In this document: positions 9,802 through 35,614 of the stretch, in pieces | Layout: every line of letters starts with the position of its first letter | Position numbering within the stretch: position 1 is the first letter of the stretch | Assembly (NCBI GenBank): GCA_934130325.1 | Contig: CAKOYA010000001.1 | Location: forward strand, 33,725-97,724 | Reading direction: 5' to 3' | DNA length: 64,000 bases | Source of the DNA: an uncultured Clostridia bacterium | Lineage (GTDB): Bacteria; Bacillota; Clostridia; TANB77; CAG-465 | Notes under the pieces: generated by a model | Seen by the model: the letters and a program-made list of their open reading frames with translations, nothing else | The model's database searches: none | What the model was told of the DNA's origin: nothing | Program-made: the position numbers and the translations under genes

Positions 9802-10899
9802 TTATTTTTTAGGTAATTGCCTATTGCCTTTTTTCGGATCAATTTTTATTCTATCTTTTAAATTCTTTTCTTTTTTCTTCAAATCGTATGAATTTTGAAT
9901 TATACTTAAGTAATTCTCATTAGAGTTTCTTTCAGAATATTCATAAGCTCTCTTGCTTAACTCTCTATATGTTTCTTTATCTATATTAATTCTTTTTGCT
10001 TTTTCTCCTCCTGGTATAACTATTCCCATTCCATATTGTTTTACCTCTTGTGAAAAATCTATAACATCTGATATTATTACAGGTTTTCCACGAACTAATC
10101 CGTCTATTAATGAATTTGGCACATCTTTTACTACCCTTTTCTGTGGCACAAATGCAACAAAATCAGAATCATCAAATAATTGTGTTAAAATTTGAGTATT
10201 ATTATGTATTTCTAATAGTTTAACTCTATCATATACTCCCTTCTCTTTCGCGATTGCATTAAAATTTTTTGTATCATTATCTCTTAATGGAATAGTTAAT
10301 GTGTAATTAGGATTTTCTTTTAATAATTCTAGTAAATATTCTAATCCTCTTTCTTTTATTGCATCTCCCTCTTTATTATTCCAACTTGCAAATAATATAT
10401 TTACATTATCGCTACTATATTCTTTATTGCTTTTTTTTCTTTCTATTTTAGATGGTGTTGGAGTAACTTCAATCTTTTCTTCATCAATTCCACATTCAAT
10501 TAATAACTGTTTATGCTGTGGTAATTCAACAAAAACTTTTTTTAAATTTTTATATTTTTTTAAATGTTTCGCATACTGTTCAGTAGGTCTTCTATACATT
10601 GATACATATAACTGATTTCCTGCTTTATTAAATAAAACTCTTTTCCATAAACATGGTTCTTCTTCAAAAACATGAACTTTTTCTTTTTTTGCATTATATG
10701 TTTCTTTTATCGCTTGAAAAACATATTTTATTGGGGAATACACATAAATATTATCTTCTATATCTTATTTTTGCATAGCTTGTTGTCCCATAAATCTTGT
10801 TGCTGAAATAATCTTAGCATTATTAGCTTTTGAAATCAACTCCATTTGATTTGACACAGCCTCTTTATATCTTACAAAAAAATCATTAATTACTAACAT
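9802..10899 (-). pseudogene. glycosyltransferase-like (GT-B C-terminal domain) interrupted by an in-frame TAA at 10765-10767
   Basis: 44 codons from ATG 10899 (MLVINDFF...GQQAMQK) then TAA, then the same frame continues DIEDNIYV-YSPIKY... to 9802; C-terminal region FVPQKRVVKDVPNSLIDGLVRGKPVIISDV resembles the GT1 family. Confidence 0.5.
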
Positions 10900-11888
10900 A
10901 ATTCTATTTCTCCATCTATTATACTATATAATTTTTTTAAAATCATTTGTTTTTCTTCAAATTTATTTTCATATCTATTTACTATACTATAGCGATCTTC
11001 TCTCGGTTTTAAATCTATAAAACTTTTTTCAATTATGTTTTTATTCAATCCATATTTATCAGCTTTTTCAAAAATATTTAATTTTTTTATAGCTTTTACT
11101 ATTTCTGAAACATCTCTATTCTGCATTAATCCCATTGCTAATATTCCAATTGAAACAGACATTCCGTGTGGTACATTTATTATTCTTTCTATTTCCTTTG
11201 CCATTATATGTTCAGAGCCACTTTCTGGTCTTCCTGTTCCATACAAATTAGTTATATATCCTGCTATACCAATAAATTCAAATAATTTAATATTATTTTT
11301 TACTATATCCTCAAATTCATTATTGTTTACAAACTTAATAACATCTTGCAATAATTTTTCTGCCATATTATATATATTGTAATCAATTTTTTCATCTATA
11401 TCTTTTTGAGCAATTTTCCAATCATAAAGAGCTGTATATATTGAGAAAACATCAGCTAGTCCATATATATTTTCTTCTTTTGACAAATTTAACAATTCAT
11501 CATCAATTATTATTGTTTCAGGAATTTTTGCCTCCAAAGTTACTTTTTTGTTTTCTTTTATTAATGCAACTTTATTTGTTGCATATGAATTTGTTGATAA
11601 CATTGTTAGAATACAAGTAAATTTAACATTTAATTTATATGCTATATATTTTCCAATATCAATTGTACTTCCTCCACCATAACTAGTTACTGTTGTTATG
11701 TTTTTATTTTCTTTAATAAACTTTTCTATCTTATCAATGTTTTTGGTAAGATTATGCCAATTAACCATTAAACATTTATTATTATCTATATTATTTTTTT
11801 CAATAGATGTTGGCGAATATATGACTAACTCATTTGGTTTCAAATTTTCAATATATTTTTTACTATTATATTTTTGAATAACCTCCAT
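10893..11888 (-). CDS. iron-containing alcohol dehydrogenase family (glycerol / sn-glycerol-1-phosphate dehydrogenase-like)
   Basis: GGGSTIDIGKYIA nucleotide-binding motif, His-rich metal site HIMAKEIERIINVPHG; 331 aa. Confidence 0.6.
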   Translation of the reverse strand: MEVIQKYNSKKYIENLKPNELVIYSPTSIEKNNIDNNKCLMVNWHNLTKNIDKIEKFIKENKNITTVTSYGGGSTIDIGKYIAYKLNVKFTCILTMLSTNSYATNKVALIKENKKVTLEAKIPETIIIDDELLNLSKEENIYGLADVFSIYTALYDWKIAQKDIDEKIDYNIYNMAEKLLQDVIKFVNNNEFEDIVKNNIKLFEFIGIAGYITNLYGTGRPESGSEHIMAKEIERIINVPHGMSVSIGILAMGLMQNRDVSEIVKAIKKLNIFEKADKYGLNKNIIEKSFIDLKPREDRYSIVNRYENKFEEKQMILKKLYSIIDGEIELC

Positions 11889-11917
11889 AAAATTATTGTT
11901 TTTGATTATATTTCTCC

Positions 11918-13003
11918 TTATAAATATTTTTCTAACTCCTTATTTTCTTGTACCTTTTTTATTAAACTTGGTAATTCTATCATCTTTTCTTGTTCTACTA
12001 TAAGCAAAACATTATTACTTTTTACTATATTTAATCCTCGTGTTCCCGCAATTGCAAAAATCGTATTGTCATCATCATTATATATATTACAAGATTCTAC
12101 ATCTTCTATTACAGAATTACCTTTTATAGTATTATTGTTCTGATCTTTTTCTTGAATTTTAAAAAAATCATTAATACTACCTATATCAAGCCATTCAAAT
12201 TCTCCTTTTATCATTTTTATATTACTTGCTTTTTCAAGTATCCCTTTATCAATAGAAATAGCATCTACTTTTTGATATACTTCTTTCAAGGTATTAATAT
12301 TATTTTTTAAACCATTTATTATTACATCTTTATATTTATATATTTGTGGCAAAAATTTTTGAAAATTATTTAATATTGTAGAAATTTCCCATATAAACAT
12401 TCCACTATTCCAATAGTATTTTCCACTTTCTAAATATTCTTGTGCTTTTATATATATTGGTTTTTCTTTAAATTCTTCTACAATATTGCATTTTAGATTA
12501 TCATCATAATGATATTTTATATATCCAAATCCAGTTGCAGGATATGTAGGCTTTATTCCTATTGTAACCAAATTTTCGTGGCTATTTGCTAAACTAATTC
12601 CTTCTTCGATATTTTTTATTAGTTTTTCTGATTGTTTTATATAATGATCCGAAGCTAAAATGGTCATTGTTCCATTTCCTTTTTGGTTTAATATTTTTAT
12701 AGAAGTATAAAAAATACACATTGCCGTGCTTTTTGACATAGGCTCATAAATAATATTTTCTCTTGGTATTCTATAGTCAATATATCTTTCAGCAAGTTCC
12801 TTTTGTTCTATACTTGTTATTACAAAAATATCATCATATTCAAATAAATTTTCTATTCTTTTTATTGTTTCATTTATCATTATATTATCAGAATATAAAT
12901 TCAAATATTGTTTAGGCTTATTAGTGGTACTAATAGGCCACAAACGACTTCCTTTTCCTCCTGCTAATATTAAAGCGTATCTTTTTTCATTATTATCTTT
13001 CAT
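11918..13003 (-). CDS. manC: mannose-1-phosphate guanylyltransferase (nucleotidyltransferase, no PMI domain)
   Basis: LAGGKGSRLWPISTTNKPKQYL N-terminal signature; 361 aa. Confidence 0.7.
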   Translation of the reverse strand: MKDNNEKRYALILAGGKGSRLWPISTTNKPKQYLNLYSDNIMINETIKRIENLFEYDDIFVITSIEQKELAERYIDYRIPRENIIYEPMSKSTAMCIFYTSIKILNQKGNGTMTILASDHYIKQSEKLIKNIEEGISLANSHENLVTIGIKPTYPATGFGYIKYHYDDNLKCNIVEEFKEKPIYIKAQEYLESGKYYWNSGMFIWEISTILNNFQKFLPQIYKYKDVIINGLKNNINTLKEVYQKVDAISIDKGILEKASNIKMIKGEFEWLDIGSINDFFKIQEKDQNNNTIKGNSVIEDVESCNIYNDDDNTIFAIAGTRGLNIVKSNNVLLIVEQEKMIELPSLIKKVQENKELEKYL

Positions 13004-13574
13004 TATTATCCTCTTTCAACTCTTTTAAGAAATTAACATAAGATTTACTTTGTTTCTTATTTTCCTCTTTTATTATAGCATTATAACCTTTTCTAACATA
13101 ATCATTTATTGTATATTTTTCATAGTTATTTATTGTTTCTAATGTTCTTTTTGATTCCTCAATATTATCAGAAATATGTATTAAATTATCAAAAAAATAG
13201 CCTTCTATTTTAGGTGCATATTCAGTTCTAATTCTTTGTTTTACTTTTCTTGCTTCGATACATTGAATTTTCCCATCAGCACTCTTTTGATACGTTGGAT
13301 TATCTATCTTAAAAACAAATACCACAATTTTTTTATTATCGGTATTCATATTTTTAATTTTGTCATATATATATCCACCCTCGTAAGCCTCTTCATCTCC
13401 TTTATAACAATCTAATACAAATTGTTCATATTTTTCTCCTAGATCCAATACTTTTACTTGTATAACATCTTCCATAATAGCTATTTTTAACATCATTTCT
13501 CTAGCATATTTATTTCCCATATTCCACAATATTCCAATAGGATATTCACTATCATAATTTTTTATTATTTGCAT
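12993..13574 (-). CDS. hypothetical protein (193 aa), translationally coupled upstream of manC
   Basis: ORF only; overlaps manC start by 11 nt; no recognisable motif. Confidence 0.4.
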   Translation of the reverse strand: MQIIKNYDSEYPIGILWNMGNKYAREMMLKIAIMEDVIQVKVLDLGEKYEQFVLDCYKGDEEAYEGGYIYDKIKNMNTDNKKIVVFVFKIDNPTYQKSADGKIQCIEARKVKQRIRTEYAPKIEGYFFDNLIHISDNIEESKRTLETINNYEKYTINDYVRKGYNAIIKEENKKQSKSYVNFLKELKEDNNER

Positions 13575-13741
13575 AGTTTCGCTCCTTTTCTCATTTCACA
13601 TAATATTGTATCATTTTGTTATTGCTTTGTCAATTTTTTCCTGTCCAACTTTATACTGTCGTATAAAAAATTTGTAGACATTCTTTCTATTTTATATTAT
13701 AGTTATTTTTTGTTATCATAACTTTATATTTAAAAATAACA

Positions 13742-14737
13742 TCATGTTATATACTTTCTATGTGAATTTTTCACATTATTCTGATTTACCATTGCATATT
13801 CCATTGTCGTATCTATTTTTATGTGCCCTAATAATTTTTGAACTTGTTCTATTGGCATACCTTTATCAATAGCCATCGTTGCCATTGTTCTTCTAAATTT
13901 ATGTGGATGCACCTTGTTTATGTTTACTTGTTTTCCTAAATTTCTAATAGCAATTTCAATCCTTGATATTCCTAATCTATTATAAGGTTTTATTAATGAC
14001 ACAAATAATGCTTCATTGTTATCCATCCTTGTTTCTAAATATTTCTTTATATACATTTTACTCTTTGCACTAAAATAAACTTCTCTTTCACTATTACCTT
14101 TACCTAAAACAATACAGCTTCTTTATTGAAAATTTATATCAGCTATATTTAATCTAGTAAGTTCTCCAACTCTCATACCAGTTGAAATTAATAGTTCTAA
14201 TATTGCTAAATCTCTTACATTTGAGCAAGTATCTCTTAACCTTTCTAAATTCTCATCTGTTAATGTTTCTTTAACTCTTCTAGTCGTTTTTACTTTGTGA
14301 ATCCTTCTAACTGGACTTTTTACAATATAATCTTCGTTTTCTAACCAGCCAAAGAAACTTGATAATGTTCTTCTTATATTATCTGTTGTTACCATACCTG
14401 CATTTGAATTACTTTTATACTCGGATAAATAGTTTCTTAACGTTTCGGTAGTAATCTCATCTATTGGAAGATTTACAGTATCAAGCATTTTATTTATATT
14501 ATCTCTGTAATAATTTAAAGTTCTTATCGAACAACCTTCAATGTCTTTAGATGATATAAATCTATTCAAAAGTTCTTTATTATTCTTTTGTATTTCTTCC
14601 TTTTGACTTTGTTCTAGTACTTCAATTCTATAATATATGCATATTTCTGTAAGTTTTTCTTTTAGTTTTATTCTTTGGTTGTTGTCTAAAAAATCTGTAG
14701 TTTCATCAACTACTTTTTCAACAAATAACTCTTTCAA
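13742..14737 (-). pseudogene. tyrosine site-specific integrase (XerC/D-like) with an in-frame TAA at 14123-14125
   Basis: N-part ...ISTGMRVGELTRLNIADINFQ then TAA, then the same frame continues RSCIVLGKGNSEREV...HPHKFRRTMAT...LLGHIKIDTTMEYAMVN (R..HxxR..Y catalytic set). Confidence 0.8.
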
Positions 14738-15134: not shown

Positions 15135-15536
15135 TTAATGCTTATATGCACTATAATTCCAATCATCCCCAATCACATATAAAAGTGATGGACATTTCTT
15201 GGACGGTACTAAAAGCATTCTACATTTTTGTTTATTAAATCTAAATACTATAATTTTACTATCATTTGTTAACCCTAATTCTTTTCTTATTCTTTCATCT
15301 ATTACTACATTTAATTCATATAATGGTAACATCTCATATCCTACTGATTTAGGCTTATTTTGAAAGTCTACCAATCTTACATTTGAAAGTTCCTTAAAGT
15401 TTTCGTATAATTCATATATTATTTCGTTACATTTTTCTTTTGTCTTTTTTATTATTTTTTCTATTGTATATTCTTTTGAATTAACAGAATACTTAAATGA
15501 AAGAATTATATTTTCATCATGTCTACATTCTAGCAT
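15135..15536 (-). CDS. uncharacterised 133-aa protein, candidate PanT-type toxin paired with Panacea antitoxin
   Basis: start overlaps the stop of the DUF4065 gene (15536); no known domain recognised. Confidence 0.45.
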   Translation of the reverse strand: MLECRHDENIILSFKYSVNSKEYTIEKIIKKTKEKCNEIIYELYENFKELSNVRLVDFQNKPKSVGYEMLPLYELNVVIDERIRKELGLTNDSKIIVFRFNKQKCRMLLVPSKKCPSLLYVIGDDWNYSAYKH

Positions 15537-15997
15537 TATATATTGCTATAGTTCTCCTTGAAATAATTTTGTATTGCTCTTTTGTCTATAACATGGTTTC
15601 TGTCTGTTTCTCTCCATGGTGTTTCTTGGTGTGTCATATCTCTTAGTTTCCATGCTGTATATTGTCCAAACCTATCATAAACTTTTTTTAATAATACTTT
15701 AGTATCTTCATCTAATTTATCATCATAATCTTCTTCATATTGTATTCCATTTGATCCAAATATTCTAAATTTATCATATATTTTTCTGATTACTGGTCCA
15801 TGTTCCCATGCTAAAAAATTTTCTTTTATTAAGCTCTCATCATTTTGGGCTAAATAACATCCTTGTGCATAATATAATAACTTTTGCAATTTTAAGTTTG
15901 TTATAAATTCAGAATCTCCAAAATTCATTTGTTTTCTATTTTCATTTAAAAACCAATTTGCAATGTCTATTGCACTATATTTTCCTTTATTGAACAT
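15536..15997 (-). CDS. Panacea-domain (DUF4065, SocA/GepA-like) antitoxin
   Basis: AIDIANWFLNE...ITNLKLQKLLYYAQGCYLA...FLAWEHGPVIRKIYDKF matches the DUF4065 pattern. Confidence 0.8.
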   Translation of the reverse strand: MFNKGKYSAIDIANWFLNENRKQMNFGDSEFITNLKLQKLLYYAQGCYLAQNDESLIKENFLAWEHGPVIRKIYDKFRIFGSNGIQYEEDYDDKLDEDTKVLLKKVYDRFGQYTAWKLRDMTHQETPWRETDRNHVIDKRAIQNYFKENYSNI

Positions 15998-16317
15998 AGA
16001 ATTCCCTACTTCTTTTAGATTTATAATATATTTTTTAACAATAATATATTATATAATAAATTTAGCATTTATTTTCATACATTATAAAACTTTTGTTTGC
16101 TTTTGTCAATAATTTCTATCTTTTTCTTATATATTCTTTATAATATGGTCTGTTTCCTATTACATTATAACATAATGCTTCATAAAATCAATAATTCTTA
16201 ACTAAATTTTTATATAATTTATATTCTTTTAACCATTACTTACATCTAAAATATAATAATCTTATAATATACAAAAATGTCATTTTTTATTGATAAATCA
16301 ACCTTTGTAATTTAGTA

Positions 16318-16390
16318 AGAGATAAGAAGAGCTTTTATCAAAATCAATTCAACCTCAGAAGTTTCAATACTTCCGAGGTTTTTATTTTTG
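16318..16390. repeat. direct repeat copy B (attR-like) of the rpsI 3' end/terminator
   Basis: aagagataagaagagcttttatcaaaatcaattcaacctcagaagtttcaatacttccgaggttttta; even keeps the K-R-stop codons of rpsI. Confidence 0.8.
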
Positions 16391-16493
16391 CTTGCCCTTT
16401 AAATTTAGTAAAAGGTACTATTTTATTATTGTATTATTCAAAACCTCGAAAATTTTAATATTTTACTTAAAATATTAGATTTATATACAAAAT

Positions 16494-16517
16494 ATCCAGT
16501 TCAACTATGAACTGGAT
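16494..16517 (-). terminator. perfect 10-bp inverted repeat atccagttca-acta-tgaactggat with T-run on minus strand (terminator of the 170-aa gene); second copy at 18355-18378
   Basis: palindrome read directly; lies at the duplication boundaries. Confidence 0.6.
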
Positions 16518-16529
16518 ATTTTCCGTTAC

Positions 16530-17042
16530 TTAATTAAGTAAATATTTTTTTACTAGCGCCTTAGAAAGCGCCATTTGAGATTTTTTTGTAAACACAAATT
16601 TGTTTTTTATATCTCCTCCGGTTTCAAATTCCATACCAATCAAAATTTCAACGATTTTAGCATTTATCATTTTCATACCCATTGGATCTTCTGGGTACTG
16701 ATTTATGACCATGTACGGAGTTATATTAAAATCGTCATATATATGATGGTTGTCAATTTTACAAAACGCAAATCCTGCCATCACAATGTCCTCAAGAGTA
16801 TTGTTATAAGTAGGATCAATATCCTTTATGTCAAGCACATCAAATGCTATTCGTACCTGACACCTATTAAGTGAATAATGCGGATCATAGCATACCCTCA
16901 TTGTTCCTATTAATTCCCTTGATTCTTTGCTAAATATCTCCAAATAAACTACAGGTGGAACGTCCTTTGGACGATCGATACACTCTACTGATAAGTAGAT
17001 TTTTCCGAAGTGGTTTAACATTGCAATCCACTCTCCTTTCAA
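16530..17042 (-). CDS. hypothetical protein (170 aa), copy 1
   Basis: ORF; identical copy at 18391-18903. Confidence 0.5.
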   Translation of the reverse strand: MKGEWIAMLNHFGKIYLSVECIDRPKDVPPVVYLEIFSKESRELIGTMRVCYDPHYSLNRCQVRIAFDVLDIKDIDPTYNNTLEDIVMAGFAFCKIDNHHIYDDFNITPYMVINQYPEDPMGMKMINAKIVEILIGMEFETGGDIKNKFVFTKKSQMALSKALVKKYLLN

Positions 17043-17173
17043 AAATAATAATTATATTATATTACGGTAAACTATTTTTGTCAAGTATTTTTAAAAAGAT
17101 CACTAATATTACTGAATTTTTTATAAATAATAAATAGACACTAATTATATAATATAATTAATGTCTACTAATA

Positions 17174-18334
17174 TTATTGTTTATTTTGGGTAGTTGTATT
17201 AGTAATTGTAGAATCATTTCCAAGTGTAACTTCAATTTCTTGTTCCTTAGACGCTCTAACTATCTTTAATTTTATCTTATCACCGATTTTTTTAGTATTT
17301 TTATACTCATTTAATTTTTCCATAGTTTTTGATTCTTGACCATCAATGGCTATGATAATATCACCCTTTTGAATTCCTGCTACTGCTGCAGGTGAATTAG
17401 CATATATCTGTGCCACATAAACACCTTCTGTTAAATTATTTCTCTTAGCAGTAGTTTCATCAATATCAATTCCACCTATACCAATATATGGTCTTTCTAT
17501 CTTTCCTTTTGATATTAATTCGTCAATTACAGTCAGTGCATCATCTGTAGGAATCGCAAATCCTAAGCCTTCAACTTCTGTAGCTCCAATTTTTACTGTA
17601 TTTATTCCAATTACCTCACCTGAAGAATTAACTAATGCACCACCACTGTTTCCTGGATTTATAGCGGCATCTGTTTGTATTAACTTATATGTTCTTCCAT
17701 CAGTTGTAATCTTCCTATTTAAAGCTGATATATATCCAACTGTTACACTACCAGCAAACTCTTGACCTAATGGATTACCTATTGCTACAGCTAATTCTCC
17801 AACTTTTAAATCTGAGGATTTACCAATTTTTGCTGCCTTTAATCCTGTTTTATCTATCTTTATAACTGCTAGATCTGTAGTTTGATCCCCACCAACTATT
17901 GTTGCCTCTACTTCCTCATCCGAATTTGGGAAAGTAACAATAACTTTAGCAGTTGAATTGTTAATAGCAGACTCTATAACATGATAGTTTGTTATTATAT
18001 ACCCATCTTCCTTATATATTATGCCAGATCCTTCTTCATCAGATTCTGAAAGTGAGCCTAAGATATTTTGTGAAATATAATTTACTTTTACACCCACGAT
18101 TGATGGGCCTACATTTTCTGCTATTGCTACTACTGGATTTTCTACACTAGCAAATTCATATGATTTTGTTACTGACCCATCACTAGTTATCTGATTGGTA
18201 TTATTGGTTATTTTATTATCAATAGCAACATATGTAACTAAACTACCAAATACTCCTCCTATTAAAGCTATAATCAATATGACAACAACACTAGGTCCAG
18301 ATTTCTTTTCTTTAAACATAATTTTTTCATCCAT
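17174..18334 (-). CDS. htrA: HtrA/DegP-family serine protease with N-terminal TM anchor and C-terminal PDZ, copy 1
   Basis: catalytic H (ITNYHVIE), D (TDLAVIKID), S (GNSGGALVN); PDZ region GVYVAQIYANSPAAVAGIQKGDIIIAIDG. Confidence 0.9.
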   Translation of the reverse strand: MDEKIMFKEKKSGPSVVVILIIALIGGVFGSLVTYVAIDNKITNNTNQITSDGSVTKSYEFASVENPVVAIAENVGPSIVGVKVNYISQNILGSLSESDEEGSGIIYKEDGYIITNYHVIESAINNSTAKVIVTFPNSDEEVEATIVGGDQTTDLAVIKIDKTGLKAAKIGKSSDLKVGELAVAIGNPLGQEFAGSVTVGYISALNRKITTDGRTYKLIQTDAAINPGNSGGALVNSSGEVIGINTVKIGATEVEGLGFAIPTDDALTVIDELISKGKIERPYIGIGGIDIDETTAKRNNLTEGVYVAQIYANSPAAVAGIQKGDIIIAIDGQESKTMEKLNEYKNTKKIGDKIKLKIVRASKEQEIEVTLGNDSTITNTTTQNKQ

Positions 18335-18390
18335 AAAATTATCCCCTCCTACATATCCAGTTCAACTATGAACTGGATATGTTCTGTTAC

Positions 18391-18903
18391 TTAATTAAGT
18401 AAATATTTTTTTACTAGCGCCTTAGAAAGCGCCATTTGAGATTTTTTTGTAAACACAAATTTGTTTTTTATATCTCCTCCGGTTTCAAATTCCATACCAA
18501 TCAAAATTTCAACGATTTTAGCATTTATCATTTTCATACCCATTGGATCTTCTGGGTACTGATTTATGACCATGTACGGAGTTATATTAAAATCGTCATA
18601 TATATGATGGTTGTCAATTTTACAAAACGCAAATCCTGCCATCACAATGTCCTCAAGAGTATTGTTATAAGTAGGATCAATATCCTTTATGTCAAGCACA
18701 TCAAATGCTATTCGTACCTGACACCTATTAAGTGAATAATGCGGATCATAGCATACCCTCATTGTTCCTATTAATTCCCTTGATTCTTTGCTAAATATCT
18801 CCAAATAAACTACAGGTGGAACGTCCTTTGGACGATCGATACACTCTACTGATAAGTAGATTTTTCCGAAGTGGTTTAACATTGCAATCCACTCTCCTTT
18901 CAA
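18391..18903 (-). CDS. hypothetical protein (170 aa), copy 2
   Basis: identical to 16530-17042. Confidence 0.5.
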   Translation of the reverse strand: MKGEWIAMLNHFGKIYLSVECIDRPKDVPPVVYLEIFSKESRELIGTMRVCYDPHYSLNRCQVRIAFDVLDIKDIDPTYNNTLEDIVMAGFAFCKIDNHHIYDDFNITPYMVINQYPEDPMGMKMINAKIVEILIGMEFETGGDIKNKFVFTKKSQMALSKALVKKYLLN

Positions 18904-19034
18904 AAATAATAATTATATTATATTACGGTAAACTATTTTTGTCAAGTATTTTTAAAAAGATCACTAATATTACTGAATTTTTTATAAATAATAAATAGAC
19001 ACTAATTATATAATATAATTAATGTCTACTAATA

Positions 19035-20195
19035 TTATTGTTTATTTTGGGTAGTTGTATTAGTAATTGTAGAATCATTTCCAAGTGTAACTTCAATTTC
19101 TTGTTCCTTAGACGCTCTAACTATCTTTAATTTTATCTTATCACCGATTTTTTTAGTATTTTTATACTCATTTAATTTTTCCATAGTTTTTGATTCTTGA
19201 CCATCAATGGCTATGATAATATCACCCTTTTGAATTCCTGCTACTGCTGCAGGTGAATTAGCATATATCTGTGCCACATAAACACCTTCTGTTAAATTAT
19301 TTCTCTTAGCAGTAGTTTCATCAATATCAATTCCACCTATACCAATATATGGTCTTTCTATCTTTCCTTTTGATATTAATTCGTCAATTACAGTCAGTGC
19401 ATCATCTGTAGGAATCGCAAATCCTAAGCCTTCAACTTCTGTAGCTCCAATTTTTACTGTATTTATTCCAATTACCTCACCTGAAGAATTAACTAATGCA
19501 CCACCACTGTTTCCTGGATTTATAGCGGCATCTGTTTGTATTAACTTATATGTTCTTCCATCAGTTGTAATCTTCCTATTTAAAGCTGATATATATCCAA
19601 CTGTTACACTACCAGCAAACTCTTGACCTAATGGATTACCTATTGCTACAGCTAATTCTCCAACTTTTAAATCTGAGGATTTACCAATTTTTGCTGCCTT
19701 TAATCCTGTTTTATCTATCTTTATAACTGCTAGATCTGTAGTTTGATCCCCACCAACTATTGTTGCCTCTACTTCCTCATCCGAATTTGGGAAAGTAACA
19801 ATAACTTTAGCAGTTGAATTGTTAATAGCAGACTCTATAACATGATAGTTTGTTATTATATACCCATCTTCCTTATATATTATGCCAGATCCTTCTTCAT
19901 CAGATTCTGAAAGTGAGCCTAAGATATTTTGTGAAATATAATTTACTTTTACACCCACGATTGATGGGCCTACATTTTCTGCTATTGCTACTACTGGATT
20001 TTCTACACTAGCAAATTCATATGATTTTGTTACTGACCCATCACTAGTTATCTGATTGGTATTATTGGTTATTTTATTATCAATAGCAACATATGTAACT
20101 AAACTACCAAATACTCCTCCTATTAAAGCTATAATTAATATGACAACAACACTAGGTACAGACTTCTTTTCTTTAAACATAATTTTTTCATCCAT
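19035..20195 (-). CDS. htrA: HtrA/DegP-family serine protease, copy 2 (G12V relative to copy 1)
   Basis: identical to copy 1 except KKSVPS vs KKSGPS. Confidence 0.9.
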   Translation of the reverse strand: MDEKIMFKEKKSVPSVVVILIIALIGGVFGSLVTYVAIDNKITNNTNQITSDGSVTKSYEFASVENPVVAIAENVGPSIVGVKVNYISQNILGSLSESDEEGSGIIYKEDGYIITNYHVIESAINNSTAKVIVTFPNSDEEVEATIVGGDQTTDLAVIKIDKTGLKAAKIGKSSDLKVGELAVAIGNPLGQEFAGSVTVGYISALNRKITTDGRTYKLIQTDAAINPGNSGGALVNSSGEVIGINTVKIGATEVEGLGFAIPTDDALTVIDELISKGKIERPYIGIGGIDIDETTAKRNNLTEGVYVAQIYANSPAAVAGIQKGDIIIAIDGQESKTMEKLNEYKNTKKIGDKIKLKIVRASKEQEIEVTLGNDSTITNTTTQNKQ

Positions 20196-20209
20196 AAAAT
20201 TATCCCCTC

Positions 20210-21463
20210 CTACATTTCATTATTACTACCTGCAGCCACAGCTGTAGAGAATGCTATTTGCAGATTATATCCACCTGTATAGGCATCAATGTCTAAAACC
20301 TCTCCTGCAAAATATAAATTTTTTATAATCTTCGATTCCATCGTCTTAGGATTTACTTCCTTAACATTAATACCTCCACATGTTATAATTGCAAATTCTA
20401 GTGGCATTAAGTTATTTATCTTAATTGTTAAACTTTTTATACATTTTACTAACCTTTTTCTTTCTTCTTTAGTTATTTGATGCACTTTCTTATTTTCCTC
20501 AATACCAGACATAATTATAATTTGCGGTATAAGTTTTTGAGGTAGCAAATCATTTAAACTATTTTTAAATTCCTTATTTGAATTCTTATCAAAATCCCTG
20601 CAAATTCTCTTATCTAACGTTTTTTCATCTAAAGCTGGTTTTAAATCTATAATCGCACATATTTTACCCTGCTTTAATTTTTCAGAAACATTATCATACC
20701 TATTTAATATACTACTTGAACTCAAAACAACAGGTCCAGTTATTCCAAAATGTGCAAACATTAATTCACCAAAATCTTCATAAATATTCTTTTTTATATC
20801 CAAATCAAACAAACTGTATCTTATATTTTTAAGAGTCAAGCCTTGTAATTTTTTACATATACTATCACTACTTTTTAAAGGTACTAACCCTGGCAATAAT
20901 TTTTCAATACTATGCCCAACATTCTTAGAAATTGTATATCCATCACCTGTACTACCAGTTGTAGAATAACTCATACCACCAGTCGCTAATATACATTTTT
21001 CACAATATATTTTTTCACCATTATCAAGTTTTACTCCAATCAAAGAATTTTCGTTTAAAATAATGTTAGCAACACTAGAATTAAATAAAATTTTGACTCT
21101 TTGTTGTTTTAATTTTTCTTTTAGAGCGCTTACTACCTCATTTGCATCATCTGATACTGGAAATACCCTATTTCCACGTTCAATTTTAGTTTTTACACCA
21201 AGTTTCTCGAAAAAATCTATAGTATCGTTGTTATCAAAATTATTAAAGCTACTATATAAAAATCTATAGTTCTTAACAACATTATTTTTAAAATCTTCTG
21301 AATCACCAGCAAAAGTTAAATTACAACGACCTTTTCCAGTTATTTTTAACTTATTTCCAAGACTATCTGTTTTTTCTATTAACAATACATCATTTCCTTG
21401 GGTAGAAGCAGTAATAGCTGCCATCATCCCAGCTGCTCCACCCCCTATTACAATAACTTTCAT
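20210..21463 (-). CDS. HI0933/BaiN-family FAD-dependent flavoprotein
   Basis: MKVIVIGGGAAGMMAAITA...GKGRCNLT dinucleotide-binding N-terminus; 417 aa. Confidence 0.7.
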   Translation of the reverse strand: MKVIVIGGGAAGMMAAITASTQGNDVLLIEKTDSLGNKLKITGKGRCNLTFAGDSEDFKNNVVKNYRFLYSSFNNFDNNDTIDFFEKLGVKTKIERGNRVFPVSDDANEVVSALKEKLKQQRVKILFNSSVANIILNENSLIGVKLDNGEKIYCEKCILATGGMSYSTTGSTGDGYTISKNVGHSIEKLLPGLVPLKSSDSICKKLQGLTLKNIRYSLFDLDIKKNIYEDFGELMFAHFGITGPVVLSSSSILNRYDNVSEKLKQGKICAIIDLKPALDEKTLDKRICRDFDKNSNKEFKNSLNDLLPQKLIPQIIIMSGIEENKKVHQITKEERKRLVKCIKSLTIKINNLMPLEFAIITCGGINVKEVNPKTMESKIIKNLYFAGEVLDIDAYTGGYNLQIAFSTAVAAGSNNEM

Positions 21464-22729
21464 TTACATATCACCTAGTATTTTATTAGCTGCAACACAA
21501 ATAGCAATTTTTGCTGATTCATAAGTAAGACCTCCCTGCATATATGCTACATAGGGCTCTCTTATAGGGCTATCAGCAGAAAGTTCAATTGATGCACCAT
21601 CAATAAATGTACCTGCAGCCATTATTATTTGATCAGAATAACCTGGCATATCCCATGGATACGGCGTTACATGACTATCTACTGGGCTAGCAGCTTGTAT
21701 TCCCTGTATAAATTTAATGAGTAATTCTTTATTATTTAATTTCACAGCTTGAATTATATCACCACGTTTTTCACTAAATTTTGGATATACTTCAAAACCA
21801 AGTTTAGACAATAAACTTGAAGCAAATATTGCAGACTTTAAAGCATTTTTTACAATACTTGGAGCCATAAACAAACCTTGTAAAATATTCCTGTTTTGTC
21901 CCAAAGTAGCTCCACATTCTTTTCCAATTCCTGGACAAGTTAAAGTCTCAGCACACAATTTTATTAGTTCCTTTTTTCCGCAAATATATGCTCCTGTTTC
22001 ACAAAGTCCTCCACCTATATTTTTTATCAAACTTCCACATACAATATCTGCACCCACTTCAGTTGGTTCTTTTTTTTCTACAAACTCCCCATAACAATTA
22101 TCTACCATAATTATTACAGATTTATCCACTTTTCTAATTTCATTTATTATATCTTCTATATCTTCTATATATAGTGACTTTCTTAATGCATATCCCTTAG
22201 AACGCTGAATGTGAATTAATTTTACATTGTTATTTTTTAAATATTTAATTATATTTTCGGTATCAAAGTTTCCATCTTGATTTAAATCTATTTGACTATA
22301 TTTAACACCAAAATTTTTTAAAGATAAACTACTTTCATTTATCCCGATAACTTCACATAAAGTGTCATACGGTTTACCAGATATTGCCAATAACTCGTCT
22401 CCAGGCATAAGTAATGCTTTAAGAACTGTTGCTATTGCATGGGTACCATTTACAAATTGTACTCTTACTAAGCTATCCTCAGTATCAAAAATTCTTGAAT
22501 ATATTTTTTCAATAACTTCTCTCCCTGGATCATCATATCCATATCCAGTTGTTTTACCAAAATGCATTCCTGACACCTGGAATTCATTAAAAGCCTTCAT
22601 AACTTTAGCCTGATTATATAATGATATGTTATCAATATTATAGAAAGTATCTTTTATTTCAACCTCAGCATACTTAGCATTTAAAACAATGTTATCTGAT
22701 AAATTATATAATTTAGAAACTTCATCCAT
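21464..22729 (-). CDS. PLP-dependent methionine gamma-lyase family / aluminium-resistance (YnbB-like) protein
   Basis: ~420 aa; ...GKTTGYGYDDPGREVIEKIY...SLIKNIGGG pattern typical of the YnbB family. Confidence 0.6.
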   Translation of the reverse strand: MDEVSKLYNLSDNIVLNAKYAEVEIKDTFYNIDNISLYNQAKVMKAFNEFQVSGMHFGKTTGYGYDDPGREVIEKIYSRIFDTEDSLVRVQFVNGTHAIATVLKALLMPGDELLAISGKPYDTLCEVIGINESSLSLKNFGVKYSQIDLNQDGNFDTENIIKYLKNNNVKLIHIQRSKGYALRKSLYIEDIEDIINEIRKVDKSVIIMVDNCYGEFVEKKEPTEVGADIVCGSLIKNIGGGLCETGAYICGKKELIKLCAETLTCPGIGKECGATLGQNRNILQGLFMAPSIVKNALKSAIFASSLLSKLGFEVYPKFSEKRGDIIQAVKLNNKELLIKFIQGIQAASPVDSHVTPYPWDMPGYSDQIIMAAGTFIDGASIELSADSPIREPYVAYMQGGLTYESAKIAICVAANKILGDM

Positions 22730-29054: not shown

Positions 29055-29103
29055 ATAAAACGTGCTATATGAATATTTAATTAATATCCATATAGCATAT
29101 TTT

Positions 29104-30096: not shown

Positions 30097-30266
30097 ATAT
30101 ACCTCCATTACTTAACTATCTAAACATTATATCATATATAATTTAGATAACAATATTTTTTAATAGATTTTACAATATTTTTCCATATTATTATTATCAT
30201 AATGTCTAATTATTATGATAATTTTTGTTCAAAAATCTAAGAAAGATTCTACAATAGTATTTCATA

Positions 30267-31523
30267 CTACTTTAACTTTTTTCTCCTTATAATAGTATTT
30301 TTAGAAATATCATCATAAGGAATGTATAATTTTACCATCTGTCCTTTAATTCCAGGATTAATCGTATCTATTTTCTTACCAGTTTTTACATCAAACAATT
30401 TTTCGATTTTAAAACTCAAATTTTCAATACTCTTTGGTTTTAAAACTTCCATATTATCATTTATACTTAATTTATTTTTTATTTCAACTGTATATATATT
30501 ATTTTCATTTTTATCAATAACTTTAGCTCCGTATTCATAATCTAGATTGTCACTCTTACCATCAAAATCATGTATATCTTGATTTTTTTCATCAGAGAAA
30601 TAAAATTCAGATAACCCTCTAGTCTTAACTTTCAATAATTCGGGTAAATATTTGTTATAATCAAATTCATTAACCCTACTATTCTCCTTTAAAGCTATAT
30701 AATCATCAATTGCTTGTCTATAAGTTCTTACAACAGTAGCTAAATAGTAATCAGTTTTTAGTCTTCCTTCTATTTTTAGGCTATCTACCCCCATATCTAT
30801 AATGGCTGGAATTTGTTTAATCAAACACATATCCTTGGACGAAAAAATGTAAGTTCCCTTTTCATCGTAATCTAAATTAATAACACTATTTGGATTATTT
30901 ACTTCACTTGCTGTCAAATTGTACTGCCATCTACAACTTTGAGCACAATCTCCCAAATTTGCACATCTACCATTTAAATATTTACTTAAATAACAACGTC
31001 CAGAATATGCAAAACATATTGCACCGTGTATAAACATTTCTACCTGTAACTCCTTAGGTTTATTATCCATTATGTACTTAATTTTTTCTTTACTAAGTTC
31101 CCTTGCTAATATAACTCTTCTAGCTCCATATTTATACCAGAAATTAGCTGAATGTAAACTTACGGTATTTGCTTGAGTACTAATATGTATTTCCATACCT
31201 TGTGCGATTTCTTTTATTTTTTCAATTACTCCTACATCACTTGCTATTATAGCATCTGCATTTAATTCTTGTAATCTTTTAATTTCTCTTTCTATTTCAT
31301 CATAATGTTCATCATGAGCATAGATATTTAATGCTACATACACTTTTTTACCAATACTATGTGCGTATTTTATAGTATCACCTAATGTATCAGAATTCAT
31401 TTCGGCTCTTGTTCTAAGTGAAAGCTTAGATGTACCAGCATAAACAGCGTCAGCTCCATACTTAAATGCTATTTTGGCTTTTTCTAAACTTCCAGCAGGC
31501 GCTAATAATTCAGGCTTATTCAT
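30267..31523 (-). CDS. peptidase U32 family protein
   Basis: MNKPELLAPAGSLEKAKIAFKYGADAVYAG... typical U32 N-terminus; 418 aa. Confidence 0.8.
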   Translation of the reverse strand: MNKPELLAPAGSLEKAKIAFKYGADAVYAGTSKLSLRTRAEMNSDTLGDTIKYAHSIGKKVYVALNIYAHDEHYDEIEREIKRLQELNADAIIASDVGVIEKIKEIAQGMEIHISTQANTVSLHSANFWYKYGARRVILARELSKEKIKYIMDNKPKELQVEMFIHGAICFAYSGRCYLSKYLNGRCANLGDCAQSCRWQYNLTASEVNNPNSVINLDYDEKGTYIFSSKDMCLIKQIPAIIDMGVDSLKIEGRLKTDYYLATVVRTYRQAIDDYIALKENSRVNEFDYNKYLPELLKVKTRGLSEFYFSDEKNQDIHDFDGKSDNLDYEYGAKVIDKNENNIYTVEIKNKLSINDNMEVLKPKSIENLSFKIEKLFDVKTGKKIDTINPGIKGQMVKLYIPYDDISKNTIIRRKKLK

Positions 31524-31695
31524 ATTAATCTCTCCTATCTACTATAAACTATATTATACCATAATAGTTTACATATGTAAATTATTCTACAATATTTTGA
31601 ATTAAATTTTAAATTTGCTTTACAGTATATAAAATAATTGATATAATTACTTTATGTAAAATTTAACCAAATTAATATTTTAAGGAGGGATTAAT

Positions 31696-31938
31696 ATGTC
31701 TATACAACATTTCAAAAAGAACTCAGAAGTCTGTATTGGTAGTATAAAAGTAATAACTATATCAAAAATTGGTTATTACAGTAGTGTGGAAAAAGCCTTA
31801 TTAGATAAGGTCTTAAAGATTATATCAAGCGAAAAGAAAAAATCGTATAAACTAATAAACTATAATATCTTTAAAATACGTGATTTTCCTAATACACAAA
31901 CACAAGAGTATATTGCTCAAATACTACTCACTTTATAA
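31696..31938 (+). CDS. hypothetical small protein (80 aa)
   Basis: AAGGAGGG RBS 7 nt upstream of ATG. Confidence 0.4.
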   Translation: MSIQHFKKNSEVCIGSIKVITISKIGYYSSVEKALLDKVLKIISSEKKKSYKLINYNIFKIRDFPNTQTQEYIAQILLTL

Positions 31939-32000
31939 CTATAAGCTAAAAAAGGAATAGTTAAGAATATTAACTGTTCCTTTTTCATATTAATATAAAA

Positions 32001-33770
32001 TTAATTGTCTATATATACTTCCTGTTTGTTATAACTAGTATGTAAATATTTATGTGCCTTTTTTGAATTTGGAGTTTTAAAAACTTTATCATATATTTCA
32101 ATAACAGCGGGATTTTGGTATGATTTTCTATATTTACTATTTTTATCCGCTTTATATAACGCACTTGATCTTAGCTTTATGACATCTTCAGTCGAAAATT
32201 TACTTTCATCAACTATTGGTTGACCACCCCCATTTACACATCCCCCTGGGCACGTCATAATCTCTATAAAACTGTATTTTGATTTTCCATCTTTTATTTC
32301 GTCCAATACCATAGAAACATTTTTAAGACCTTGAACAATTGCAACAATATGTTTCCTATTACCAATTTGAATCTCAGCCTCTTTTATCCCATTATTTTTC
32401 CTTAAATTCTTAAAATCTATTCTTTCAATTTCTGTACCATCTATTATATAAGACATGCTCCTTAAAGCAGATTCCATAACCCCTCCAGTATTTCCAAATA
32501 TATGTCCAGCACCACTTGCAATTCCAAATGGATTATCATATTTTTCTGGAGCTAGCAAAGCTAAATTAATATTAGAAATCTTAAGTAATTTTGCTAATTC
32601 CCTTGTAGTAATAACATTATCTACAGCCTGTAACCCATTTTCTAATTTTAAATTTTCTCTTTTTATTTCAGCTTTCTTAGCAGAGCATGGCATAAGCGCA
32701 ACAGAGTATATATCTTTAGGATCAATATTGTATTCCTTAGCATAATATGTTTTTATCAGTGTTCCCATAATTTCCATTGGAGACTTTGTAGTCGACAGAT
32801 GATTTAAACACTCTGGATAGAATTTTTCAGCAAATGTTATCCATCCACTACTACATGAAGTAATCATTGGTAAATTCTTATTTTCTTTTACTCTAGAGAT
32901 AAATTCAGTCGCTTCCTCCATTATAGTTATATCTGCTGCAAGATCTGTGTCAAATACTTTATCAAATCCTAAGCTTCTCAACGCAGCTACCATTTCTCCT
33001 TGAACTAGCGTACCAATAGGAAGACCAAATTCTTCCCCAATTGCTACTCTTACAGCTGGCGCCGTTTGTATAACAACGTGTTTTTGTGGGTCAAGAAGTG
33101 CTTCTCTTAATTCAGTGATATTACTTTTTTCAGTAAGGGCCCCCACTGGACAATGTATAACGCACTGACCACATCCTACACAAGTTGAATGTTTTATTTT
33201 CATATCTAATGCTACTCCAATTTTAGAGTTAAATCCTCTATTTAAATTAGTAATAGCACACACATTTTGTACATTTTTACATATGTTTACACATCTTCTA
33301 CATAAAACACACTTTGCCATGTTTCTTACAATACATTCAGATGAACTATCCATTTCAAACTCTGGCATTTCACCCTCATACTCTAAGTCGTCTATGTTAA
33401 ATTTTTTACATAATTCTTGTAATCTGCAATTTGTATTCCTTTCACATGTAAGACATTTTTTTTCATGGCTTGAAAGTATTAACTGAAGGATAGTCTTCTT
33501 TATTTCTATTAATTCTTTAGTATTTGTTCTTACAACCATGTTATTTTCAACTGGATACACACACGCTGCTTTAAACCCTTTTATGCCATCTATTTCAACT
33601 AAGCACATTCTACAATTTCCAACTTCATTTATCCCTTTTAAATAACAAAGTGTTGGTATATCTACATTTATCTTTTTTGCAGCTTCTAAAATTGTTGTTC
33701 CTTTTTCAACAACAACATCTTTTCCATCAATAGTAAGTTTTACTTCTTCTAATTTCATAGTCTCCTCCAT
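32001..33770 (-). CDS. hydA: [FeFe]-hydrogenase catalytic subunit HydA (2Fe-2S + 4Fe-4S + H-cluster)
   Basis: N-terminal 2Fe-2S CYLKGINEVGNCRMC, ferredoxin-like CxxCxxCxxxCP motifs, H-cluster motifs TSCSSGW / MPCSAKK / CPGGC. Confidence 0.9.
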   Translation of the reverse strand: MEETMKLEEVKLTIDGKDVVVEKGTTILEAAKKINVDIPTLCYLKGINEVGNCRMCLVEIDGIKGFKAACVYPVENNMVVRTNTKELIEIKKTILQLILSSHEKKCLTCERNTNCRLQELCKKFNIDDLEYEGEMPEFEMDSSSECIVRNMAKCVLCRRCVNICKNVQNVCAITNLNRGFNSKIGVALDMKIKHSTCVGCGQCVIHCPVGALTEKSNITELREALLDPQKHVVIQTAPAVRVAIGEEFGLPIGTLVQGEMVAALRSLGFDKVFDTDLAADITIMEEATEFISRVKENKNLPMITSCSSGWITFAEKFYPECLNHLSTTKSPMEIMGTLIKTYYAKEYNIDPKDIYSVALMPCSAKKAEIKRENLKLENGLQAVDNVITTRELAKLLKISNINLALLAPEKYDNPFGIASGAGHIFGNTGGVMESALRSMSYIIDGTEIERIDFKNLRKNNGIKEAEIQIGNRKHIVAIVQGLKNVSMVLDEIKDGKSKYSFIEIMTCPGGCVNGGGQPIVDESKFSTEDVIKLRSSALYKADKNSKYRKSYQNPAVIEIYDKVFKTPNSKKAHKYLHTSYNKQEVYIDN

Positions 33771-33787
33771 AATTACAAGAGTTAAAT

Positions 33788-35614
33788 TTAATTACTAATT
33801 GCTTTAAATGGGCATTTTGTAATACATACCCCACATTTTATACATTTTTCTTGGTTTATAACAAAAGGGGTTATTCTTAATTCACCATCTATTGCACCTA
33901 CCGGGCAATTTTTTGCACATATTCCACATTTTTTACACTTTTGTGCTTCTATGTGCATATGCGTCAATGACTTGCACTCTCCTGCAGGACATTTCTTATC
34001 TTTTATATGTGCCTCATATTCTTCTCTAAAATATTTTAACGTACTAAGTACTGGATTAGGTGCTGTTTGACCAAGACCACAAAGAGATGACTTTTTTATA
34101 TTTTCAGCTAAATGCTCAAGTTTTTCAATATCCTCAATTTTTCCCCTTCCCTCCGTAATCCTAGTAAGTATTTCTAACATCCTTTTAGTACCAATTCTAC
34201 ATGGAGGACATTTTCCACACGATTCGTCTACTGTAAATTCTAAGAAAAATTTTGCTAAATTCACCATACACTTGCTTTCATCCATTATAATGAGTCCACC
34301 AGATCCCATCATAGAACCAATATTATTTAAAGTTTCATAGTCAATTTTAATATCCAAATATTTTTCTGGAATACATCCTCCACTGGGACCACCAGTTTGA
34401 GCAGCTTTAAATCTTTTTCCACCTGGTATACCACCGCCTATATCATACACAATTTCTCTTAGAGTTGTACCCATTGGAACTTCTACTAGCCCAACATTAT
34501 TAATACTTCCACCTAAAGCAAATACTTTTGTTCCCTTAGAGTTATCTGTACCTATATCATTATACCATTTTGAACCATTTAATATTATTCTTGGGATATT
34601 AGCATATGTTTATACATTATTTAAAAGTGTAGGTCTACCAAACAATCCTTTCACTGCAGGGAAAGGTGGTCTTGGCCTAGGTTCACCTCTTTTACCTTCT
34701 ATAGAATTCATTAATGCTGTTTCTTCACCACAAACAAAAGCTCCTGCCCCTAATCTTAGTTCTAAATCAAAATCTAAGCCTTTATCCAATATATTTTTTC
34801 CAAGTAGTCCTAATTTTTTAGCTTGAAGTATTGCTATTTTTAATCTTTTTACTGCTATTGGATATTCTGCACGTACATAAATATATCCTTGGTTTGCCCC
34901 AACTGCATATCCTGCAATTATCATAGCTTCAATTACAGAATGCGGATCACCTTCTAAAATACTTCTATCCATAAACGCACCTGGATCACCTTCATCTGCA
35001 TTACAACATACATATTTTATGTCTGAAACAGCATTCTTAGTAAATTCCCACTTGCGTCCAGTTGGGAATCCTGCTCCGCCTCTTCCTCTTAATCCAGATT
35101 GCCTAATTTGTTCTATTACATCATCTCTTGACATATTAAGCGCTTTATATAACGCTTGATAACCATCAACAGCTATATATTCTTGAATTTTTTCCGGGTT
35201 AATTTTCCCACAATTTCTTAAAGCAATACGTTTTTGTTTCTTATAAAAATTTAATTCTTTCCACTTTTTTATTAATTTTTCATTTTCATTTGCAAGTAAT
35301 CTTTCAATAATTTTATTTTCTAAAACTGAATTAATAATTTCTTCTGCATCTGTAGGTTTTACCATTTCATAAAATATTTCATCTGGATCTATTACTACAA
35401 TAGGTCCTTTTGCACAAAAGCCAAAGCACCCTGATTTTTCAACATAAATGTTTTTTATATTTTTAGAATAAATTATATCTTTTAAAACTTCAAACAATTC
35501 ATTACTCTTGGAAGAAGTACATCCTGTTCCACAGCAAACTAAAATCCTTTTTTGTTTTAATACATTGATATACCTTTTCTTAATATTTTCTAACTTTAAT
35601 ATATCCATACACAC
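33788..35614 (-). pseudogene. hydB: NuoF-like flavoprotein subunit HydB of bifurcating hydrogenase, interrupted by an in-frame TAA (34610-34612) at the conserved NNVET glutamate
   Basis: ORF1 ends ...GLFGRPTLLNNV, then TAA, then the same frame reads [54 protein letters not shown]...; expected GAA became TAA. Confidence 0.8.

Follow-up and report, generated by a model that had tools for sequence, protein, structure and literature searches.

The window, as we call the whole 64-kb stretch of DNA analysed here, comes from an uncultured gut Clostridia bacterium that is very AT-rich (about 25% GC). Three genes on its minus strand each carry an in-frame TAA: a glycosyltransferase gene (ancestral extent 9733-10899, TAA at 10765-10767), a tyrosine recombinase (integrase) gene (13742-14737, TAA at 14123-14125), and hydB (33788-35608, TAA at 34610-34612), which encodes the NuoF-like subunit of the HydABC [FeFe]-hydrogenase. 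The translations and a six-frame scan confirm the observation, made earlier in a sequence-only reading, that each of these codons breaks an otherwise continuous frame. The scan looked for same-frame ORF pairs split by one stop, and found true one-stop interruptions at these three TAA sites only. The accompanying inference that GAA became TAA also holds at all three sites, where orthologues have a Glu codon. The other same-frame ORF pairs, at 21464, 27118, 44550 and 57730, are ordinary neighbouring genes (for example L9/DnaB and Met-gamma-lyase/HI0933-like). Two TauE half-genes were considered as a further lesion and rejected, as conspecific contigs keep the same halves.

The glycosyltransferase is of the GT-B type, with a weak Pfam match to Glycos_transf_1, and the start of its gene overlaps the stop of the upstream gene. 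Its orthologues are 382-388 aa long. The TAA at 10765-10767 occupies codon 45, ancestrally GAA: of the 13 orthologues that cover the site, 11 have GAA or GAG and the other two, which are distant, encode Gln, and the change from GAA to TAA is polarised to the window lineage. The sequence-only reading had described the interrupted genes as free of other lesions. This is wrong for the glycosyltransferase, as its apparent terminal stop at 9802-9804 is itself a premature terminator that was once GAA and that costs the protein its last 23 residues. Beyond this codon the translated frame of the window is open as far as the ancestral stop at 9733-9735, and P0241 and other orthologues continue past the site (...LPKKENEVKRDEGEKDENSDSKYLGNI). 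The second GAA->TAA change is also polarised to the window lineage, and the gene now has two nonsense codons. An intact glycosyltransferase of 388 aa (P0241) is encoded by the strain represented by L036/L037, which has 98.2% nucleotide identity to the window, and the gene is also intact at nine of 13 loci of other species.

The same operon includes a mannose-6-phosphate isomerase (PMI) gene (7154-8093, minus strand) that is frameshifted and matches its Pfam family in halves. One TA unit has been lost from a (TA)n run at about 7608-7621, visible as a 2-bp gap in comparison with L036, and the frameshift leaves ORFs at 7545-8093 and 7154-7627. The intact 313-aa PMI of L036 matches the window in two frames (tblastn), and the 182-aa PMI call is found likewise in L032, L033 and L039. 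The TAA codons of the glycosyltransferase and the integrase fall within a 7.6-kb block, composed of this surface-glycan operon and the adjoining tyrosine recombinase. Changes in the operon on the window lineage comprise 16 synonymous, 20 non-synonymous and two nonsense substitutions, compared with 27 synonymous and 17 non-synonymous substitutions on the sister lineage. The ratio of non-synonymous plus nonsense to synonymous changes is therefore 22:16 in the window lineage versus 17:27 in the sister lineage, a contrast that is suggestive of relaxed selection on the operon and is not significant (about p = 0.08, an estimate).

The integrase pseudogene retains Pfam matches to a SAM-like domain (residues 56-137) and to Phage_integrase (residues 158-319). 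Its TAA replaces Glu205, a codon that is GAA in the closest orthologue and a position that is Glu in 119 of 119 homologues. From the usual placement of catalytic residues, we take the stop to separate the box I Arg (TGMRVGE) from the GKG Lys, HxxR and Tyr that follow it, and neither fragment is predicted to hold a complete active site. The integrase family is abundant and highly conserved in the clade. An intact member (P0122/L005) has 95% DNA identity to the window copy; we found no intact integrase at the same locus, and the intact copies lie elsewhere. The locus-associated integrase has been broken independently in two other species (L017 and L013). In L017, a sister species, it carries TCA->TAA and GAA->TAA changes at codons other than that of the window, and in L013 it is a remnant with a deletion and a frameshift. 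At the integrase, neither attachment sites nor an invertible segment could be made out. The idea of an invertible promoter was dropped, as the inverted repeats are weak and merely AT-rich.

The lesions of this block are shared among conspecific contigs. At least five of these, namely L032/L038, L033, L034, L039 and L040, have 99.95-100% identity to the window and the same glycosyltransferase stops, as well as the integrase stop where it is covered. No near-identical conspecific metagenome contig that spans the TAA at 10765-10767 or at 14123-14125 lacks it. L033 and L034 show the plus-strand TTA directly at the codon-45 site of the glycosyltransferase, and L033 also shows it at the integrase stop. 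Gene calls reflect the interruptions: the glycosyltransferase is split into proteins of 44 and 313 aa in L032, L033, L034, L039 and L040, and the integrase is called as 204 and 104 aa in L032/L038/L041, L033/L042 and L039, with the truncated integrase product on record in at least five contigs. Several samples are represented among these contigs, and the assemblies are of the scaffold, NODE, k141 and Logan types. The names of many of the contigs hint at one cohort, and they may represent separate samples and assemblies and perhaps not separate populations. Because the glycosyltransferase and integrase TAA codons recur across several samples and three kinds of assembly, they are real and inherited. 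Given the positions of the lesions relative to the protein domains, the functions of the glycosyltransferase, the PMI and the integrase were probably lost in one strain lineage. Pseudogenisation, one of the possibilities offered by the sequence-only reading, is supported for the glycosyltransferase and the integrase (at least five contigs, further lesions and a non-synonymous excess), but not as a set of independent events in otherwise intact genes. Of the findings which that reading held would count against its view, further decay among orthologues is present, at the glycosyltransferase/integrase locus.

The third site is different. The hydB gene has 606 codons and was identified by Pfam matches and synteny: its product has a Complex1_51K domain (168-340), an NADH_4Fe-4S domain (451-534) and ferredoxin domains (550-605), and it lies between hydC (35621-36109) and hydA (32001-33770), an arrangement shared with L001 and L026. 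The TAA at codon 333 replaces the invariant Glu of the NNVET motif (Glu in 120 of 120 homologues), and is located within the FMN-binding domain, upstream of every C-terminal Fe-S domain. Base 34612 is A in the window and C in all six conspecific contigs (L026-L031), where the codon is GAA. One of these, L027, matches the window over 17,045 bases except for this base; across about 44 kb, the window has just one other private difference. No record of a truncated 332-aa HydB product was found. A 37-mer spanning the site had no match for either allele in the JGI metagenome scan, a result that is uninformative on the allele. An exact look-up of the neighbouring HydA at 589 aa (first ATG) also gave no match, and gene callers probably use a later start (585 aa).

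It could be argued that all three TAA codons arise from one systematic sequencing or assembly error, such as G->T damage by oxidation or a miscall in a specific context. The same change is seen three times (C->A on the plus strand, G->T in the codon, each after an A), other clade assemblies also have G->T singletons, a GAG->TAG among them, and the hydB base is private to the window. However, the glycosyltransferase and integrase TAA codons are found in at least five contigs from several samples and different assemblers, and the same contigs also carry the PMI frameshift and the second glycosyltransferase stop. Furthermore, the window differs from these contigs by no indels and by only one to four mismatches per 15-20 kb, and its sequence is therefore accurate. 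The only context common to the three sites is A-G-A-A, judged by eye, and no methylation-like motif was seen. We consider a shared error very improbable, and the recurrence of the stops at 10765 and 14123 refutes the earlier suggestion that it was the single cause of all three. The proposal of an error or a recent mutation survives for hydB, where the base is private relative to six of six conspecific contigs, and not for the other two sites. Either the hydB C->A change (plus strand) is an error of the consensus, or the sampled population acquired it by a very recent and probably deleterious mutation.

That the hydB stop is a genuine recent loss of function is a credible reading that we hold only tentatively. 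It would have been produced by the same G:C->T:A-prone process as the other lesions, for example through weak or missing 8-oxoG (MutM/MutY) repair in a reduced, AT-rich lineage. The change is identical in kind to the inherited lesions, and the rest of the window sequence is very accurate. In addition, all seven nonsense lesions of the clade with an assignable source codon are G:C->T:A changes; the source codon of an eighth, in L019, could be either AAA or GAA. An orthologue-bridged stop scan of all loci returned mostly antisense 'shadow ORF' noise, and its sense-strand cases alone were used. The seven assignable cases, a number of which share one locus, suggest a G:C->T:A transversion bias. 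On the other hand, among the fixed substitutions polarised to the window lineage there is no strong excess of this class (5 of 42), the hydB base is one of just two private differences and alters an invariant position in an enzyme of core energy metabolism, and the gene is intact in every other contig. A heavy damage or mutator signature was also sought at the invariant positions of HydB and the integrase and rejected: besides the two stops, the window-specific changes there are mixed and conservative, with only one G->T (V->L).

All four nonsense lesions in the window are GAA->TAA, which generic substitution models make improbable (about 0.0002-0.001). This coincidence of four TAA lesions at Glu codons, together with frames that are otherwise open and conserved, is what would be expected if a suppressor tRNA-Glu(UUA), or readthrough in particular contexts, partly decoded UAA as Glu and left the three genes functional. 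Several observations weigh against this explanation. About two in three genes of the window end in TAA: this is the stop of 44 of the 63 listed ORFs, or of 41 of 60 when the three interruptions are set aside, and the others have TAG (10) or TGA (9). In-frame TAA at Glu positions is confined to four sites in about 16,400 codons, of which roughly 1,050 are GAA; three of the four are in the decaying block and one is private. An Rfam scan of the window detected only tRNAs Thr-UGU, Glu-UUC and Lys-UUU, and no recoding element. We found no tRNA with a UUA anticodon in the 64-kb window or in 24 related loci. A search with the tRNA-Glu anticodon arm mutated to UUA gave 53 + 2 collection matches, none of them a tRNA, and we estimate that this is close to the chance count for a 17-mer in collections so large. 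The frameshift in the same block is beyond rescue by any suppressor, the L017 integrase has a TAA derived from TCA (Ser) and not from a Glu codon, and the hydB TAA is missing from all other conspecific contigs. Known bacterial stop reassignments all involve UGA (PMC8629427). Decoding of UAA as Glu with retention of function is, in our judgement, extremely unlikely, and the readthrough or suppression that the sequence-only reading had listed is without support. Hardly any likelier is low-level decoding by an undetected suppressor or readthrough that would keep some full-length protein, HydB included, or the weaker form of this idea, in which an unusually strong G:C->T:A bias would reflect defective 8-oxoG repair and make GAA->TAA the main way in which pseudogenes arise in the lineage.

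The earlier reading also considered three TAA codons in 64 kb to be more than expected from random decay. This claim fails on three counts: two of the three sites were inherited together within one decaying block, TAA accounts for 54-65% of the possible nonsense substitutions in this codon usage, and the third site, in hydB, is a private singleton. The three TAA codons do not have a common origin; two are inherited pseudogene lesions and one is an assembly-private base. Two separate origins, namely the decay of the glycan block (glycosyltransferase and integrase) and a base private to this assembly in hydB, are in our view very probable as the explanation of the whole set, and take in the sharing pattern, the extra lesions and the intact sister-strain alleles, all of which are observed. 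The nonsense mutations of the glycosyltransferase and the integrase were fixed in one strain lineage, inside the decaying block. That every stop is TAA may reflect the fact that most nonsense substitutions end in TAA, with GAA by far the largest G:C->T:A target (48-60% of nonsense targets if only G:C->T:A acts). Overall, ordinary nonsense mutations and the decay of genes, with one possible error besides, explain the stops in the window; no new genetic code is involved.

A widely sampled strain lineage of uncultured gut Clostridia would thus have lost a surface-glycan glycosyltransferase, a PMI and the adjacent recombinase. Annotation pipelines will split the interrupted genes. The hydB call in particular would falsely imply the loss of a bifurcating hydrogenase, and a single-base call of this kind is not to be trusted without reads. 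More generally, a series of TAA nonsense codons is expected from ordinary mutation in very AT-rich genomes, and alone is no evidence of recoding.

In short-read libraries, oxidative damage (8-oxoG) gives rise to G>T / C>A artefacts (Costello et al. 2013, PMC3616734). The private C->A change in hydB (plus strand) resembles these artefacts, as do the G->T singletons that separate otherwise identical assemblies of a related organism. However, artefacts of this class mostly stay at low frequency, entering the consensus only when coverage is low, and they cannot account for the two shared TAA codons. The likeness to stop codon reassignment (UGA to Trp or Gly in bacteria, UAA/UAG to Glu in some ciliates) is superficial and consists of in-frame stops at positions of one amino acid. 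Unlike in reassigned codes, TAA is here the dominant terminator, the window and the related loci yielded no cognate tRNA, the stops are accompanied by a frameshift, and one site is not shared by conspecifics. The integrase is similar to degenerate integrase relics beside variable loci, with the copies of the window, L017 and L013 disrupted independently. The window copy, however, still has 95% DNA identity to intact copies elsewhere, and its inactivation would therefore be recent, or the copy recently acquired. The closest likeness is to bacterial pseudogenes in variable surface-polysaccharide loci: two stops and a slippage frameshift are found in one glycan operon, the sister-strain alleles are intact, and the non-synonymous share is raised in the affected lineage. 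As biology, the finding is of minor importance. The block described here does not differ from such loci in any essential respect, its sole oddity being that every nonsense lesion is GAA->TAA.

The window has a GC content of about 25% and carries nearly all of its genes on the minus strand; its relatives are without exception uncultured gut Clostridia MAGs and metagenome contigs. Minus-strand translation confirms the three in-frame TAA codons where the sequence-only reading had placed them. They lie at 10765-10767 in a GT-B glycosyltransferase (...QQAMQK-stop-DIEDNIY...), whose ATG overlaps the stop codon of the gene upstream, at 14123-14125 in a tyrosine recombinase (integrase, ...DINFQ-stop-RSCIVLGKGNSER...), and at 34610-34612 in hydB, a gene of 606 codons that lies between hydC and hydA and has a NuoF-like product. 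Comparison with homologues shows that glutamate is the residue replaced at all three sites. The column at the stop is E in 120 of 120 HydB homologues and 119 of 119 integrase homologues, and the closest integrase orthologue (95% DNA identity) has GAA at this site. At the glycosyltransferase site, 11 of the 13 orthologous loci that extend across it have GAA or GAG, and the other two, both distant, have Gln. Each event is thus a G to T change in the codon, C to A on the plus strand.

A six-frame scan of the window for same-frame ORF pairs with one stop between them detected no additional true interruptions, and the remaining pairs were rejected as ordinary adjacent genes. At 43801-44531, two TauE/SafE genes of half size (117 and 126 aa) lie next to each other with a 4-nt overlap; they stay two genes in conspecific contigs, indicating a normal split architecture, not a lesion.

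The glycosyltransferase and integrase stops are common to several near-identical conspecific contigs, the opposite of the pattern at hydB. These comprise L032/L038 (a scaffold, its record shared with L026), L033/L042 (a k141 assembly from another sample), L034 and L040 (Logan assemblies), and L039 (a NODE contig with 2 mismatches to the window over 15,015 bases). Their gene calls split the glycosyltransferase into 44 and 313 aa and the integrase into 204 and 104 aa. Given this recurrence, both TAAs are real in the DNA and inherited within one strain lineage. Judging by record names, several of these samples may come from one cohort, so the samples and assemblies are independent but the populations not necessarily.

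Further lesions accompany these stops. The conspecific strain L036/L037 (98.2% nucleotide identity) has an intact 388-aa glycosyltransferase (P0241, 97% amino acid identity) and an intact 313-aa mannose-6-phosphate isomerase (PMI); relative to it, the window has two additional lesions, both also present in the near-identical contigs. The apparent terminal TAA of the glycosyltransferase (9802-9804) is itself a GAA to TAA change, the fourth such lesion in the window: orthologues extend 23 residues past this site (ENEVKRDEGEKDENSDSKYLGNI), and the window frame is open from there down to the ancestral stop at 9733-9735. As this tail has been shortened independently in three other species (L015, L019, and L024), its loss may be mild. 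The PMI gene (7154-8093) is frameshifted because its (TA)n run at about 7608-7621 is one TA unit short, leaving ORFs at 7545-8093 and 7154-7627. When substitutions between the window and L036 were polarised with three outgroups, the window lineage had 16 synonymous, 20 non-synonymous, and 2 nonsense changes across the whole operon, and the sister lineage 27 synonymous and 17 non-synonymous. These counts suggest relaxed selection on the window-lineage operon, the difference being not significant.

Given the usual placement of catalytic residues in tyrosine recombinases, the integrase stop would leave the box I arginine on one fragment and the Lys, His-x-x-Arg, and Tyr that follow it on the other, so that neither would have a complete active site. 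The integrase adjoining this glycan locus is damaged in other species too: in L017 (1084-2079) it has TCA to TAA at codon 62 and GAA to TAA at codon 219, and in L013 (1-340) it is a remnant with a deletion and a frameshift. This recombinase is highly conserved, and its intact copies are located in other genomic contexts.

Several observations concern the surroundings of these integrases. Directly upstream of the broken gene, window positions 15135-15997 encode an antitoxin-like protein of 153 aa with a SocA/Panacea domain and, as its partner, a protein of 133 aa that matches no family; the two may be a toxin-antitoxin pair of the integrase's mobile remnant. In the related locus L005, an AhpC/peroxiredoxin gene is apparently split into a 51-aa N-terminal part (6463-6618) and a 195-aa remainder (16294-16881) by an insert of about 9.7 kb in which a large serine recombinase accompanies integrase P0122, itself intact, suggesting an intervening mobile or excisable element. 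At L005 6886-9493, the gene calls for a P-type cation ATPase are 696 and 155 aa long and, judging by where they start, in two different frames, suggesting a frameshift there. Another member of the integrase family, P0121 (378 aa, on an NCBI contig of 147,689 bases), contains a 47-residue internal tandem duplication (RDTCSNVRDLAILELLISTGMRVGELTRLNISDMNFQERSCIVLGKG, twice).

The hydB stop is of a different kind. Contigs of the same strain or species, retrieved by exact-protein look-ups, have GAA at this site in six of six cases, and the collection has no record of an equal gene product for the truncated 332-aa HydB, so the TAA is private to the window. L026 differs from the window at 2 positions over 20,489 bases, the sole difference of L027 over 17,045 bases is position 34612, and L028-L031 (99.8% identity) carry C there. 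If real, the stop, at codon 333 within the FMN-binding domain (168-340) and before the NADH_4Fe-4S (451-534) and ferredoxin (550-605) domains, would be expected to abolish the subunit. The window sequence is otherwise very accurate: alignment to conspecific contigs shows 1-4 mismatched bases per 15-20 kb and not one indel. Its only private differences in about 44 kb are at 6239 and 34612; as a stop results from about 4-6% of random substitutions in these genes, one nonsense change among two is unlucky, not extraordinary. On balance, an error or the capture of a minority variant seems slightly more likely to us than a real mutation that has become fixed. Between near-identical metagenome assemblies of a related organism (L011 versus L010, and L007), most differences are G to T singletons; in L011 two lie 16 nt apart (3274 and 3290), one of them making GAG to TAG in a 359-aa gene. 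These singletons are likely library damage or low-coverage consensus error, showing that such calls do reach consensus sequences.

Suppression or readthrough of UAA is very improbable. Of the 63 listed ORFs, 44 end in TAA (41 of 60 without the three interruptions), and the window encodes only tRNAs Thr-UGU, Glu-UUC, and Lys-UUU. No UUA anticodon was found in 24 related loci, and a scan of the collection for a tRNA-Glu anticodon arm mutated to UUA gave about as many matches as expected by chance (our own estimate), none of them a tRNA. The PMI frameshift in the same block and the replacement of Ser by one L017 integrase lesion also argue against it, as do the bacterial stop reassignments known so far, which involve UGA in every case (PMC8629427).

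Three TAAs are unremarkable, as TAA accounts for 54-65% of possible nonsense outcomes under the window's codon usage (GAA 6.4%, AAA 8.3%, TTA 4.9%, TAT 4.2%). GAA as the source of all four window lesions is less expected: its probability is 0.11-0.18 each under generic models (about 0.0002-0.001 for four), and 0.48-0.60 each if G:C to T:A transversions act alone. In the clade loci that could be scored, a source codon can be assigned to seven nonsense lesions, and all seven are G:C to T:A: four from the window, two from L017, and the private GAG to TAG of L011. An eighth, in L019, could have come from either AAA or GAA. A bias of such strength is absent from fixed window-lineage substitutions (5 of 42), which are filtered by selection and by G/C-site scarcity. 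It is reasonable, if unproven, that a G:C to T:A-prone process contributes to the excess. Such a process could have a biological origin (8-oxoG repair); in the case of private singletons, it could instead be damage to the library of the type that PMC3616734 describes.

Two other features of the window were noted. A tandem duplication of 1,863 nt (16492-18354 and 18353-20215) consists of copies that are 99.73% identical, with 5 mismatches between them, and includes the gene for a 386-aa HtrA-like serine protease as well as an ORF of 170 aa. There is one copy in the conspecific scaffold L032, so that either the window holds a recent duplication or assembler-concatenated strain variants, or the repeat collapsed in this short-read scaffold. 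The region 38358-42746, bounded by a Lys-Glu-Thr tRNA cluster and DnaD/DnaI-like genes, contains small ORFs together with the gene (39845-41701) for a coupling protein of the TraG/VirD4 type, 618 aa long. Its layout is kept in L001 (75% identical), where the ORF adjoining TraG has a weak T4SS-pilin match, and the region could be what is left of a conjugative element that integrated long ago.

The three stops had been read as equivalent events in otherwise intact genes. That description does not hold: two of them are part of a pseudogene block that is inherited and carries several lesions, and the third is a single-base call private to the window. Together they amount to gene decay of an ordinary kind and, possibly, one error in the consensus. 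This is already-known biology, with the excess of GAA to TAA (G:C to T:A) changes as one small loose end.
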